64,000 nucleotides of DNA from positions 17,435 through 81,434 of the IMG/VR virus record IMGVR_UViG_3300037454_000078. One strand, written 5' to 3'. Each line of letters opens with the position of its first letter. Positions within the stretch are counted from its first letter, which is position 1. The stretch comes from a virus (lineage: Duplodnaviria > Caudoviricetes). Positions 7,405 through 47,746 of this stretch are shown in pieces. The notes below the pieces were generated by a model, which did no database searches, was not told the DNA's origin, and saw nothing but the letters and a program-made list of their open reading frames with translations. The position numbers and the translations under genes were made by a program.

Positions 7405-8061
7405 TTAACCAAAAAAGGCCTTGAGAGCTCCAGACACGCTCTCCCCCTTGGCTTCCTTCATCCTCTTGTACTCCTCGAACGTAACCACTCCCTTGTTCCC
7501 CTCTTCGATGCGCCTTACGTTCTCCGTGCGCTCTATTTCCGCGTAGTAGTCTCCGCGTTCAGCCATGAACTTGTTCAGTGACTCTGTTATGACGAGGGCA
7601 TACGAGTCTCCGCCATAGAAGCGCCCGTACTTTCCAGCCATGAAGCGAGAAACGAACAGCAGTATTTCCTCAACCTTGAGCGTCTTGTACTGTGTGGATA
7701 TTGTCTGAGCCAACATGTACACCTGTTCTTTCGAGAACTTGTCGTTCGTCACGTTGAGGAATACAAGCATCGACTGCAGGACGCCGAAGAGCCATGTGGC
7801 AGACGAATTCTTCCCGTATGTGACATCTATTCTAACGAGCGTCGGCGATTCGCGCTTGAACACGTCTATCGGATTCTGCACGATTGAGTTCATGTTGGCA
7901 TACGAGAATCTGTTGCAGAACCCTCTTATGTCCCCGTACTCATTCCTTATCTCCGCCACCCATGTCGGCTGGCTCTCCGATGTTGCCAAAGAGCCGTTCC
8001 ATGAACGAGTCTGCTTCGGCAATAGTTCTCCCAACTTTTTCGGTTGCTGTTTCTCTTCCAT
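7405..8061 (-). CDS. Hypothetical protein downstream of replication initiator (possible helicase-loader-like partner)
   Basis: 218 aa; overlaps 3' end of initiator gene; function inferred from position. Confidence 0.6.
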   Translation of the reverse strand: MEEKQQPKKLGELLPKQTRSWNGSLATSESQPTWVAEIRNEYGDIRGFCNRFSYANMNSIVQNPIDVFKRESPTLVRIDVTYGKNSSATWLFGVLQSMLVFLNVTNDKFSKEQVYMLAQTISTQYKTLKVEEILLFVSRFMAGKYGRFYGGDSYALVITESLNKFMAERGDYYAEIERTENVRRIEEGNKGVVTFEEYKRMKEAKGESVSGALKAFFG

Positions 8062-8767
8062 AGTTGTTGTTGTTATTTTTATTCTTAGACCATGTCGTGC
8101 AGGCTGCTTTCCAGCTCTTCATAGGATTACGGCCTACTTTCCATCCGTTGCTCTCATAATGTGCAAAGAAGGCTTCCGCATCGAACGTATAGCCCTTCTC
8201 GTTGATGTAAGCCTGTATTTCGTCAACGGTAGGCTTAACAAATCGTTTCTCTTTCTTTATAGAAGACACGTTAGTGTCTGATATTTCTTTAATATTATCT
8301 TTCTTTTCCTTTCTTCTAGATAGTTGTTCATTTTGTTGTTCATTTTGTTGTTCATCATCAACAGTGCCACTCATACTTAAATCATTGATTTCCAACGTGT
8401 TCTGTTGTTCATTTTGTTGTTCAATTACTAAGTATTTCTTGATGGTTATAATATTAATCAGCTTACTCGTTGTCTGTTCGATGATTCCAGACGAAAGAAG
8501 TTCTGACAAGAACTTGCGTACAGTATTCCTGCTCCACTGCCACTTTTCTGCGAGGTTTGCTTCTGATATAGCAATCTCGTATGGTTTCAGCGTAACCTTG
8601 ATGCCTCTCACAAAAAATTCGCGCTCCTTATATGCAGCTTGGAAACAAAGGTCTATAAACGCCTGAGCACGAGTAAACCTCTCTGACGAGAAGAAGTCCT
8701 CGTCATAAAGCCCTCTATCCAACTTTATAAAACCCTTATTCAACTTGTAGCAGTCTTTAAAAGCCAA
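7940..8767 (-). CDS. Phage replication initiator (replisome organiser, lambda O-like architecture), TTG start
   Basis: N-terminal FIKLDR...wHTH (LAEKWQWSRNTVRKFL), central repeat linker, C-terminal FVKPTVDEI...HYESNGWKVG..PMKSWKAA domain. Confidence 0.8.
   Translation of the reverse strand: MAFKDCYKLNKGFIKLDRGLYDEDFFSSERFTRAQAFIDLCFQAAYKEREFFVRGIKVTLKPYEIAISEANLAEKWQWSRNTVRKFLSELLSSGIIEQTTSKLINIITIKKYLVIEQQNEQQNTLEINDLSMSGTVDDEQQNEQQNEQLSRRKEKKDNIKEISDTNVSSIKKEKRFVKPTVDEIQAYINEKGYTFDAEAFFAHYESNGWKVGRNPMKSWKAACTTWSKNKNNNNNYGRETATEKVGRTIAEADSFMERLFGNIGEPADMGGGDKE
8323..8423. repeat. Iteron-like 12-bp repeats (GTTGTTCATTTT) inside initiator gene
   Basis: GTTGTTCA core at 8323, 8335, 8347, 8404 and 8416; adjacent AT/pyrimidine tract 8281-8320. 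Confidence 0.7.
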
Positions 8768-8878
8768 ACAAGCGGTTCTACTCTTCAGCTGCTACTCCGA
8801 ATTTCGAACCGCCTGTTGTGGCAAGTTGTTATAACATTTATGTCTCCATCGCTTTATCACCTATAGTAGCAGACGGCG
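8767..8878 (-). promoter_or_regulatory. Structured 5' leader of initiator with complementary hairpin loops
   Basis: Loop CUGCUACU (8865-8872) is the exact complement of loop AGUAGCAG (8789-8796); 12-bp stem 8767-8778/8806-8817 reaches the start codon. Confidence 0.65.
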
Positions 8879-8909
8879 TTCAAGCGTGCGATTTCAATGA
8901 ATCACGGTG

Positions 8910-8941
8910 CAAAGATAGCAATTATCCGCTCATATTCCAAA
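8910..8941 (-). promoter_or_regulatory. Bacteroidetes promoter
   Basis: TTTG-N20-TATCTTTG perfect consensus on minus strand. Confidence 0.85.
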
Positions 8942-8961
8942 CATTTTATGCATTTTTATGA

Positions 8962-9303
8962 TTATTCGTCATTCAAAGCGCGTAGTTCACTTCCCAACAT
9001 CAAAGCACTAATCTTTGAGTAGATGCCAACTCTTCTAAGAGTCCTGACTCTCTCGAAGTCGCCGTCCTCGTACGCACGTCTGTACGACTTTCCGAGCACT
9101 TTAGGAACGTCTTGTCTGCTGATGCGCTCGTCGTCGCATGCTCGGGAGAGGAGCTCTACCTCCGACTCCGTGGCAGAACACTCCCTCCTGTAGTTCATGC
9201 GTATCATGTCGTACGTGAAGCTTCCAAGACCGAACTTCCTTGCAATCGGCATCAATCTCAGCAGATAGCGTCGGCAGATGCGCTGAAGCGTGTCATTCCT
9301 CAT
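8962..9303 (-). CDS. Hypothetical protein
   Basis: 113-aa ORF in tandem leftward operon. Confidence 0.65.
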   Translation of the reverse strand: MRNDTLQRICRRYLLRLMPIARKFGLGSFTYDMIRMNYRRECSATESEVELLSRACDDERISRQDVPKVLGKSYRRAYEDGDFERVRTLRRVGIYSKISALMLGSELRALNDE

Positions 9304-9583
9304 CTTCTGCTGTCTCGAAGCTTACGTTGTACTTCTCCTTCAGATACCAATAAGGAATGGCATCAAGTACCAAAGCAACCTTGTACTCAGGCTTGAAGTG
9401 CTCCCTGACATTGGAAGGCAAGTCTTTCAGCGTATCCTCGTTCACGCACTCCTTCACGAGCGACACGTTCAGCGGATTCAGCGGTACGCACATCTTCAGC
9501 CTGCTACCTGTCGCAAACACAATCTCAGCGTCGTCTGGCAATGCAGCGAACACTTCGTTCTCCAAAAATTCCTTCTTTGTCAT
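9293..9583 (-). CDS. Hypothetical protein (likely start MTKKEFLENE)
   Basis: ORF track; start moved to the ATG after the upstream stop. Confidence 0.65.
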   Translation of the reverse strand: MTKKEFLENEVFAALPDDAEIVFATGSRLKMCVPLNPLNVSLVKECVNEDTLKDLPSNVREHFKPEYKVALVLDAIPYWYLKEKYNVSFETAEDEE

Positions 9584-23222: not shown

Positions 23223-23399
23223 ATGGATGTAAGAATAAAGTATAAATCAGCAAAAAATGCGCAGGACGCAGCAAGTAAGCTGCCAATAGCATGCAGGTTC
23301 TTGATTGTTACAGACAAGACAACAGATTGCTATTTGCAAATTCCAGAAGAATACGAGGACTACGTAATGAATTTCTTAAACCCAGACAAGTATGTGTAG
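23223..23399 (+). CDS. Small hypothetical protein (58 aa)
   Basis: Manually translated; first gene after promoter, overlaps recombinase start. Confidence 0.55.
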   Translation: MDVRIKYKSAKNAQDAASKLPIACRFLIVTDKTTDCYLQIPEEYEDYVMNFLNPDKYV

Positions 23400-24231
23400 G
23401 GTATTCTTATACAGCCGCATCAGTACAGACCAGCAGTCTCTTGCACAACAGGAGAGGACTGTATACGAGTGGCTTGGCCGCAACAACATGTCAGTCACTG
23501 ACGTTGTGAGCGACGAGGGAATCAGCGGTGGCGTGTCGTATAAGGAACGCAAGCTTGGAAAGGAGCTGCTTCCGATTATGATTGCTGGCGACATGCTCAT
23601 CGTATCAGAGATTTCACGTCTTGGACGTTCGATGTTCGACCTCAGTAAGCTTATCAACGAGGAGTTGAAGCCGCGTAAGATTCGTCTTGTTGTGGTAAGT
23701 ATGGGACTGGATTTGCGATGCGACCATATCACTGCGCTGGACGAACTGATTCTTCAGAACTTCTCGTTTGCCGCCCAGTTGGAGAAGGAGCTTATAAGCA
23801 GCCGCACGCGCTCTGCGCTTGAAGTGAAGAAGAAACAGGGCATTAAGATGGGCGCTGCGTCTGACATCTATAAATCAAACAAATCAAAGAAGAGTAAAGA
23901 ACAGATAGGTAAAGAGATTATGCTTAGAGGCAGGATGAAGAACAAGAGGCACATGGAGTCGAAGGAAGCGCAGATGTTCCTCAAAGCACTGAAGAAAGCG
24001 TTCCCAGAGTACTGCGAGGACGAAGACTTCACGAAGTGGGATTGGGAATTGGGTCTGCGTCTTCGTTGCGGAAAACTTGAGAAGCTGGTCGAAGTTATGA
24101 AAGACATTCACGACGTAGACCAGACAGTCTTTGCCAAGTGGCAATTTGACAGTCCTTTGCTTGCCCGCCGTCTGCGTGCCCACATGCAGCAGTTCAAGAA
24201 GAGTGTAAAGAATTATTCGTCTAACAACTAA
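23392..24231 (+). CDS. Serine recombinase, resolvase/invertase family, with extended C-terminal domain
   Basis: LYSRISTDQQS catalytic motif, DEGISG, GDMLIVSEISRLGRS, EKELISSRTRSAL. Confidence 0.9.
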   Translation: MCRVFLYSRISTDQQSLAQQERTVYEWLGRNNMSVTDVVSDEGISGGVSYKERKLGKELLPIMIAGDMLIVSEISRLGRSMFDLSKLINEELKPRKIRLVVVSMGLDLRCDHITALDELILQNFSFAAQLEKELISSRTRSALEVKKKQGIKMGAASDIYKSNKSKKSKEQIGKEIMLRGRMKNKRHMESKEAQMFLKALKKAFPEYCEDEDFTKWDWELGLRLRCGKLEKLVEVMKDIHDVDQTVFAKWQFDSPLLARRLRAHMQQFKKSVKNYSSNN

Positions 24232-26813: not shown

Positions 26814-26845
26814 TTTGGAATATATCAAATATCGTCGTATATTTG
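26814..26845 (+). promoter_or_regulatory. Bacteroidetes promoter
   Basis: TTTG-N20-TATATTTG. Confidence 0.8.
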
Positions 26846-26860
26846 CAGTGCTTTTAGGAA

Positions 26861-27028
26861 GTGGGAACTCTTAGGAGCAGACATTTGGAAGAACGTTGAG
26901 ATAACGGACATACGTTTATACATAATCGTCGGATTTCGGAGAGTTCCCACTGTTGCGAAAGCAACATCCGACAATGCGACGAACCTATTCAGAGCTACCT
27001 GTCGGATTTCCGATGGGTAGTTTTGTTT
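26861..27028 (+). promoter_or_regulatory. Attenuator-like structured leader
   Basis: 11-bp stem 26861-71/26940-50; GAAA hairpin 26951-66; terminator-like 26998-27017 plus U-rich tail. Confidence 0.55.
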
Positions 27029-27040
27029 AGGTGAACGTAG

Positions 27041-46962: not shown

Positions 46963-46994
46963 TTTGGAAGTTTCAAACTTTATTCGTATCTTTG
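46963..46994 (+). promoter_or_regulatory. Bacteroidetes promoter for HNH gene
   Basis: TTTG-N20-TATCTTTG. Confidence 0.8.
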
Positions 46995-47008
46995 CAACAT
47001 CAAACAAT

Positions 47009-47104
47009 GGTATGTACGAGATACCGAATGTTTAAGACTTATTGCTCCTTGTTAGTAAGATATGCTCGTACCATATCTGAACACTTGGAGCACTTTTTAT
47101 TTTT
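47009..47104 (+). promoter_or_regulatory. Structured leader with complementary hairpin loops
   Basis: GGTAT-GTACGAG-ATACC and AGATATG-CTCGTAC-CATATCT inside TGCTCC/GGAGCA plus U-tract. Confidence 0.7.
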
Positions 47105-47746
47105 ATGGAACAGGAAATTTGGAAAGATGTTAAAGGTTTTGAAGGTTTTTATGAAATAAGCAATTTTGGTAGGGTCAAGTCTTTGGAAAGAACCTACAAG
47201 ACAAGGAATAATAAAACGTGGCACGTCGGGGAAAAAATCTTGAAGATAGTACCGTTTCACGGTTATCCTGCTGTTGTGCTTAGTAAAAATAGCGTTTGTA
47301 GAAGATATGCTATTCACAGATTGATTGCAGAAGCATTTATACCCAACCCAGAAAACAAGCCTTTTATAGACCATATTAACACGAATACAATGGATTACGG
47401 ATTGTCTAATTTGAGATGGGTAACTGCAAAAGAGAACTGTAACAACCCAATAACAAGAAGTAGAAATAAAATAAATCCGCACACTAAAGAAGTAAAAGAA
47501 AAAAGACTCAATACTCGTATAATCCATAGGACTGCAAGTTCACCAAATCGTGTCTATCAGTACACAAAAGATTTAGTATTTGTTGCATCTTATGTTTCAA
47601 TAGCAGAAGCATCGAGACAAACAAATATATCAGAAGGGTGTATAAGGGTCGCAAGAGACAGTTCATACATCAAAGATGGTAAGGAGTTTCTCAAAACTGG
47701 TGGAGGGTTTGTTTGGAAATCTGCATTGATAGAGCCTAACAAGTAG
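47105..47746 (+). CDS. NUMOD4-HNH homing endonuclease
   Basis: EIWKDVKGFEGFYEISNFGRVKS; IHRLIAEAFIPNPENKPFIDHINT...NLRWVTAKENCNN; AT-rich. Confidence 0.92.
   Translation: MEQEIWKDVKGFEGFYEISNFGRVKSLERTYKTRNNKTWHVGEKILKIVPFHGYPAVVLSKNSVCRRYAIHRLIAEAFIPNPENKPFIDHINTNTMDYGLSNLRWVTAKENCNNPITRSRNKINPHTKEVKEKRLNTRIIHRTASSPNRVYQYTKDLVFVASYVSIAEASRQTNISEGCIRVARDSSYIKDGKEFLKTGGGFVWKSALIEPNK

Follow-up and report, generated by a model that had tools for sequence, protein, structure and literature searches.

A folded leader RNA with covarying kissing loops and a third covarying site at the start codon of a replication-initiator gene in a ruminant gut phage

Results

The phage and the initiator locus

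The window analyzed here is a stretch of 64,000 nucleotides, corresponding to bases 17435-81434 of an 81,434-bp IMG/VR virus record that was judged complete. The record represents an uncultured 81-kb phage, and matching DNA was detected in bovine and goat gut metagenomes by a sequencing-run search, which points to the ruminant gut or rumen. A pattern scan found the Bacteroidota-type promoter pattern TTTG-~20 nt-TAnnTTTG 12 times in the window, compared with 1.96 expected occurrences.

The leader described in this study precedes the replication-initiator gene (Table 1). The gene product matched the PHROG families annotated as DnaD-like helicase loader and as replication initiator O-like in a PHROGs search, and its winged helix was recognized as a weak Pfam match. 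The gene call for P0001 and the homolog alignment A1 place the start at the same UUG codon, giving a protein that begins with MNKGF. All initiator homologs align from this MNKGF codon, and several use AUG there.

No tyrosine integrase, ParB, or any sign of lysogeny was found in the phage. The sole recombinase found was a serine recombinase of 279 aa (Resolvase domain, 91 bits) encoded at 23392-24231 on the plus strand, a size that suits an invertase or resolvase rather than an integrase. The promoter pattern of the leader had no match among 185,579 prokaryote genomes, and blastn of the region against phage GenBank sequences returned zero matches. In addition, a goat-gut contig is near-identical to the window over 8441-8958 and then continues with unrelated sequence, the break at 8958 lying just upstream of the promoter. 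This break suggests that the promoter, leader, and initiator move as one mosaic module.

Table 1. Positions of the initiator gene, of the two leaders in the window, and of example loci from other leader families
Feature	Position	Strand	Description
Replication-initiator gene	7940-8743	minus	267 aa; UUG start 8743-8741; winged-helix N-domain and DnaD-like/O-like helicase-loader C-domain
Promoter	8910-8941	minus	-33 TTTG, 20-nt spacer, -7 TAtcTTTG; pattern scan
Hairpin 1	8857-8879	minus	5-bp stem 8879-8875/8861-8857, 13-nt loop; folds
Site 1	8872-8865	minus	loop-1 core CUGCUACU
Palindrome	8827-8836		10 bp, perfect; within the ~20-nt spacer between the hairpins
Hairpin-2 domain	8763-8822	minus	GCCA/UGGC base, 12-bp outer stem, internal loop, inner stem, 8-nt loop
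Outer 12-bp stem	8817-8806 with 8778-8767	minus	
Hairpin-2 internal loop	8802-8805 and 8779-8783	minus	GAAA/GAGUA
Hairpin 2, inner part	8801-8784	minus	5-bp stem 8801-8797/8788-8784
Site 2	8796-8789	minus	hairpin-2 loop AGUAGCAG
Site 3	8747-8753	minus	CUGCUAC, third copy of the loop-1 core; complementary to loop 2; 3 nt upstream of start
47-kb leader	46963-47104	plus	before NUMOD4/HNH gene, ATG at 47105; fold
47-kb leader promoter	46963-46994	plus	
47-kb hairpin 1	47009-47025	plus	loop 47014-47020
47-kb hairpin 2	47058-47078	plus	loop 47065-47071
47-kb outer stem	47043-47048 with 47087-47092	plus	
Type B leader, example	L083:2366-2500		
Type C1 leader, example	L093:1403-1500		
Type C2 leader, example	L094:1402-1500		
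Type D leader, example	L119:560-700		

Parts and fold of the leader

The initiator leader is a 5' untranslated region of ~160 nt on the minus strand. The earlier note had described a promoter (8941-8910), two hairpins, and a 12-bp outer stem on this strand, all of which were recovered at the same positions, and its observation that the two loops are perfect 8-nt reverse complements was confirmed in the window, where both 8-mers are absent elsewhere in the 64 kb. The stem of hairpin 1 had been drawn with arms of 6 and 7 nt and has to be redrawn, the conserved stem having 4-5 bp around a 13-nt loop. The MFE fold includes both hairpins (-49.1 kcal/mol, z = -3.0). The promoter is almost unchanged in the homologous leaders L082, L095, L289, L292, and L304.

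Translation had previously been linked to the fold through a UUG at 8767, taken as the start codon reached by the 12-bp stem. This assignment was abandoned, because gene callers and all homologs start at 8743-8741; the 3' arm of the stem stops 24 nt before this true start. The link to translation rests instead on site 3, which lies next to the true start and had been missed. Bases 8753-8746 form a one-mismatch copy of the 8-nt loop-1 sequence, and the site-3 7-mer adjoins a start codon nowhere else in the genome. The predicted accessibility of the start region (0.44-0.67 unpaired) was unremarkable and decides nothing.

The spacer with the palindrome is invariant in all leaders of this type (type A), while the flanking stems vary, and the 81-kb genome contains no second copy of the palindrome. 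A protein might recognize it on RNA or DNA, or processing might take place there. A two-codon mini-ORF, AUG UUA UAA, is also found in the spacer. The GAAA/GAGUA internal loop, which we take to resemble a loop-E/sarcin-ricin motif (AGUA with GAA), is kept in the window, L082, L084, L095, and L289, and not in L304. Small ORFs over hairpin 1 were considered as a leader peptide and rejected, the start, frame, and stop not being conserved in the five leaders read.

The earlier note had also regarded the leader as a possible target for a trans RNA. Neither an antisense promoter nor a separate trans RNA was found, and the plus strand of 8741-8909 carries no Bacteroidota promoter consensus in a scan that misses weak promoters. 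The single RNA run found gave two read-sized contigs, neither of which reaches beyond the upstream gene.

The pattern in a single sequence

The chance level was set with 5000 dinucleotide shuffles of the leader. An 8-nt inverted pair occurred in 581 of them (12%), and a 7-mer present twice direct and once inverted occurred in 140. The same triple with one copy at most 14 nt from the start was found in 8 of the 5000 shuffles. In this one sequence, the pattern is only suggestive, weak evidence. The proof rests on homologs.

Covariation in homologous leaders

Type A homologs were found via close homologs of the initiator and their contigs, and by a scan with the invariant spacer that was blind to the loops. 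Scans of IMG/VR with the initiator alone returned only distant relatives without homologous leaders, a scan with P0014 gave no matches, and the first spacer pattern had no IMG/VR match. A shorter 17-mer spacer pattern gave mostly chance matches, among which the true leaders were only L217/L292, L289, and L304. The type A set consists of the window as reference, L082 (initiator 73% identical), L084 (cut inside hairpin 1), L095-97 with identical leaders, L304 and L292 (= L217) with identical leaders, and L289 as a separate variant. This sample holds four independent specificities in 5 full sequences, and the P0044 and P0059 leaders added no further specificity.

A covariance model, R1, was built solely from the window and L082 with a nested structure. 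It retrieved and aligned L289, L095, and L304 at E values of 1e-13 to 1e-16, and its weak matches to L190, L287, L235, and L294 (E 0.03-0.6) were taken as noise. The model-guided alignment A5 was used for counting; the MAFFT alignment A2 had misaligned the hairpin-2 stems. The loop columns were unpaired in R1, so the loop pair counts are unbiased by fitting.

In A5, 96.3% of the cells were paired and 17 pairs had changed on both sides, compared with 6.7 +/- 1.9 in shuffles, none of which reached 17 (0/500). When the partners were shifted by 1-3 columns as slid controls, pairing fell to 29-48%. Changes on both sides affected 3 of the 5 pairs in the hairpin-1 stem, 8/16 in the outer and 2/5 in the inner helix of hairpin 2, and the hairpin-2 domain is present in the MFE fold of every homolog. 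Compensatory loop-loop changes in homologous leaders, the test that the earlier note itself had proposed, were also found: of the 8 pairs in the loop1-loop2 helix, 4 had changed on both sides, and 97.7% of the helix cells were paired. The loop cores occur in four versions, UGCU, AACC, AGCU, and AGUC, within C-NNNN-AC, and each is matched exactly in GU-NNNN-G. The helix between loop 2 and site 3 has 7 pairs, 4 of which changed on both sides, and 100% of its cells are paired. The distance from site 3 to the start codon downstream is 1-3 nt throughout; two lineages start with UUG and two with AUG.

The paired cells contained 15 G.U/U.G and 0 A.C/C.A combinations, indicating that the structure is that of the sense-strand RNA. 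A G.U pair at alignment columns 79/121 is conserved in 5 of 6 rows. Between the window and L082, the leader is 93% identical and the gene 75%, so the leader is more constrained. The stems diverge as fast as the loop core, so no focus of diversifying selection on the core is apparent. A target-site duplication was considered as the origin of the direct copies and rejected, as it cannot give three-way covariation at one locus. Judged by its covariation, the leader is a real and uncatalogued folded RNA in which two loops covary as a kissing pair and a third site, at the start codon, covaries with them.

Other leader families before homologous initiators

Homologous initiator genes on ruminant/gut phage contigs are also preceded by other leader types, which have no sequence similarity to type A. 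Type B leaders (L083, L085-L092) adopt a Y-shaped fold in which the loop of the second hairpin contains a perfect 11-nt complement to the sequence that stops 2 nt short of the AUG; a 7-nt complement to this loop lies another 21 nt upstream. Across contigs, type B leaders show 100% identity, compared with 78-90% identity for the promoter spacers and 83-91% for the coding sequences. Types C1 (L093, L099, L111) and C2 (L094, L309-311) have the Y-shaped fold of type B, with 7-9-nt loop complements that occur twice downstream. The second downstream copy lies 0-4 nt before the AUG, and its letters are wholly different between C1 and C2. A conserved UAGCU loop is shared by types B and C. In type D (L119, L124, L127, L133, L134), a hairpin loop is complementary to the internal loop of a second domain, and this pairing is kept in L134 via two double changes and one G.U; no copy was found at the start codon of type D leaders. 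On the basis of these folds and changes, B, C, and D appear as further families before homologous initiators, each with its own covarying loop pairing.

Leaders elsewhere in the genome

The earlier note had suggested that the design recurs at the 47-kb locus (47009-47104) and that the two leaders belong to a family of riboregulators. This suggestion is borne out by covariation of the loop complementarity at 47009-47092 in a homolog: the loops of the 47-kb leader are complementary over 7 nt, and the homolog L089:124-269 keeps 7/7 via 2 double changes, with compensatory changes in stem 1 as well. The 47-kb leader lacks a start-codon copy, and no homologs of it were found in the records behind L289, L292, L304, L004, and L001. 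In L089:264-1298, the homologous leader precedes another gene, which codes for a 344-aa Cys-rich DUF723 protein. The presence of this leader type before different genes suggests that it moves between different nuclease-like genes.

Another element lies at 26846-27040 on the plus strand, after a promoter at 26814-26845. It is a very stable leader or ncRNA of ~190 nt (-77.5 kcal/mol over 200 nt) with a strong terminator at its end. It has a three-copy design, with GUCGGAU twice direct and AUCCGACA once inverted, one copy being located in the 5' arm of the terminator. The element looks like a terminator/antiterminator switch. Its motif is, as it happens, identical to the one in type C1 initiator leaders.

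Discussion

The covariation suggests that the leader acts as a three-site switch, in which loop 2 would pair either with loop 1 as a decoy or with site 3 and would thereby gate translation of the initiator, a reading that we favor with modest confidence. From the sequence comparisons, the leader most likely gates initiator synthesis; the translational nature of the gating, its repressive sign, and what flips the switch are points that we infer. What the comparisons show is the fold, the two mutually exclusive pairings of loop 2, and the three-way covariation of the sites. During transcription, loop 2 would kiss loop 1 first, and site 3 would stay free. In Bacteroidota, initiation is governed by mRNA structure and by nucleotides upstream, with no dependence on SD pairing (PMC6847099). 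Since SD-less initiation is tuned by structure near the start, pairing of loop 2 with site 3 should block 30S binding, and initiator synthesis would be off. In every design the decoy partner is transcribed ahead of the start-proximal copy, so the default cis state would leave the start free. Candidates for flipping the switch are leader RNA that accumulates and acts on other mRNA copies, loss of the 5' hairpin by processing, and a factor on the invariant spacer.

That type A has a copy beside the start codon, and that types B and C have equivalent copies, speaks for regulation at the level of translation initiation. The three-site switch is also favored by the recurrence of this logic in unrelated leaders (B, C1, C2), with different letters in each. 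On the other hand, loop 2 tips a stack of ~20 bp and its target strand lies 9-14 nt beyond the base, so pairing in cis looks sterically hard, which counts against a cis switch. Bending of the internal loop, or pairing between molecules, would ease this difficulty. Type D and the 47-kb leader kiss without a start-codon copy; thus, the kiss must have a function independent of site 3.

The leader resembles known RNA systems and has no catalogued counterpart. The window had no Rfam match at gathering score, the leader region and 8 homologous loci had none at E <= 5, and the 47-kb leader had no match either (best E 0.93). Full-text literature searches found no description of kissing-loop leaders in Bacteroides phages. 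By analogy, the leader may work like the same-strand antisense systems of P4/P1 or like the IncI-alpha pseudoknot, and it is a member of neither family. In P4 immunity, the CI RNA (seqB) and its targets seqA and seqC are on the same strand and control replication genes (PMC4825925). The c4 RNA of P1/P7 is related to P4 CI, being represented by Rfam C4 RF01695 and the c4-a1b1 motif (PMC2864571). Similar to these systems, the leader holds an antisense segment with upstream and downstream copies in one untranslated stretch before replication genes, and specificity appears to be set by a few covarying nucleotides. However, there is no sequence or structure homology, as seen from the negative Rfam scan, and here the downstream copy lies against the start codon, a position that suggests control of translation and not termination. 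Moreover, no lysogeny module was found, and the host phylum would be Bacteroidota, not Proteobacteria. Members of the C4/CI clan serve as prophage immunity and are released by processing as mature small RNAs (RNase P, tRNA-like end), a step that would be putative for the present leader.

The rep pseudoknot of ColIb-P9 repZ (IncI-alpha/IncB/IncL-M) is reported to activate translation (pmid 9565606 and PMC1170848, via PMC10724649; Asano and Mizobuchi, 1998). There, the loop of an upstream hairpin pairs with a sequence beside the site where rep translation initiates, and expression is set by an RNA that competes for this loop, which is the likeness to our leader. ColIb-P9 is described as needing leader-peptide translation and as having an opposite-strand counter-transcript as competitor, whereas the competitor here would be loop 1 in the same RNA; in addition, no conserved leader peptide, antisense promoter, or SD sequence was seen here. 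Since the ColIb-P9 pseudoknot activates translation, the phage leader may act with either sign. The guanidine-IV (mepA) riboswitch and classical attenuators also show a likeness, with an upstream loop that kisses the loop of a terminator-like hairpin and one segment that has two exclusive partners. They differ in that the loop cores here vary in four versions, leaving no ligand pocket, and in that the leader has no canonical terminator and no Rfam match.

Other explanations of the three sites have to be weighed against the switch. The leader RNA might act in trans as a same-strand antisense RNA, the hairpin-2 domain or the whole short leader, processed or terminated, accumulating as a stable small RNA and pairing with sites 1 and 3 on other mRNAs. 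This is rather unlikely in our view, and it would imply that the initiator is shut off in a dosage-dependent manner and that co-infecting relatives are silenced in a kin-specific manner via the 4-nt 'address'. The upstream copy, antisense loop, and downstream copy on one transcript reproduce the P4 seqA/CI (seqB)/seqC layout (PMC4825925), four addresses occur within otherwise similar leaders, and a U-rich run closes the folded domain of types B and C ahead of the two target copies. The steric difficulty of a cis pseudoknot would also favor intermolecular pairing. However, the search of the C4 clan at E <= 5 was negative, the phage showed neither a tyrosine integrase nor ParB nor signs of lysogeny, and the stems diverge as fast as the address without selection for diversity focused on it. 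A terminated type A leader would moreover hold loops 1 and 2 and be self-closed. The related proposal that the 4-nt core is an address through which the leader RNA of one genome would silence initiator translation on incoming or sibling genomes sharing it is similarly doubtful. We consider it still less likely that the leader is a transcription attenuator, in which hairpin 2 and its U-rich tail would form a terminator or pause and the kiss would modulate read-through in a guanidine-IV-like manner, either by RNA only or with a factor. A terminator scan of 8400-9400, defined by a G+C-rich stem with at least 5 U among the 8 nt directly after it, was empty. A U-rich stretch does follow each closing stem (window GGCUUUUAAA, 47-kb leader CUUUUUAUUUUU, type C UUUGCUUUUU), but the base helix of the window is followed by UUUUAAAG with just 4 U, and the run in L289 is interrupted. 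The kiss is the one feature common to all leader types, including those without a start-codon copy, as an attenuator would have it; the loops vary freely, so there is no conserved ligand pocket, and the covariation of site 3 and its position at the start codon would be left unexplained. Termination at hairpin 2 might nevertheless act as a second layer of control.

A purely architectural or stability element is very improbable, since selection on pairing is needed for site 3 to covary perfectly in type A, as it is for the start-proximal copies in B, C1, and C2. Such an element would compact the 5' end against nucleases through the kissing fold, or bind a protein, with a non-regulatory copy at the start codon. 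It would be in line with the conserved single-stranded nucleotides (the GAAA/GAGUA internal loop and the palindrome-bearing invariant spacer) and with the kissing pairs of type D and the 47-kb leader. Least probable, and disfavored here, are sites at the DNA level, either operators or iterons for a phage protein or inverted repeats belonging to a small segment that inverts. The initiator gene does have a short motif beside it in three copies, one in inverted orientation, the genome encodes a small serine recombinase, and the motif differs where the initiator N-domain differs. However, the copies sit in the loops of hairpins whose stems covary with G.U and without A.C pairs, and contigs over the region show no inversion joints. 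A spacer of 68 bp is also very short for an inverton. The recognition helix of the winged helix is identical behind type A, B, and C1 leaders with unrelated motifs, and type A leaders precede three different initiator N-domains, indicating that these motifs are not sites to which the initiator itself binds.

Next to nothing is known about how the abundant phages of gut and rumen Bacteroidota time or limit their replication, or about the regulation of translation in a phylum that ignores Shine-Dalgarno sequences. A compact, well-delimited RNA element with three covarying sites, four natural specificities, and sister families offers a testable model of RNA-only control at SD-less starts, to which the second copy of the design in the same phage adds. 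The natural cores are ready-made orthogonal 'addresses' for reporters in Bacteroides/Prevotella. If the address reading is true, it would represent RNA-only replication control and kin exclusion in integrase-less Bacteroidota phages. The address system would then have arisen independently of the P1/P4 immunity RNAs, and would have been reused in unrelated leader families and for other genes.
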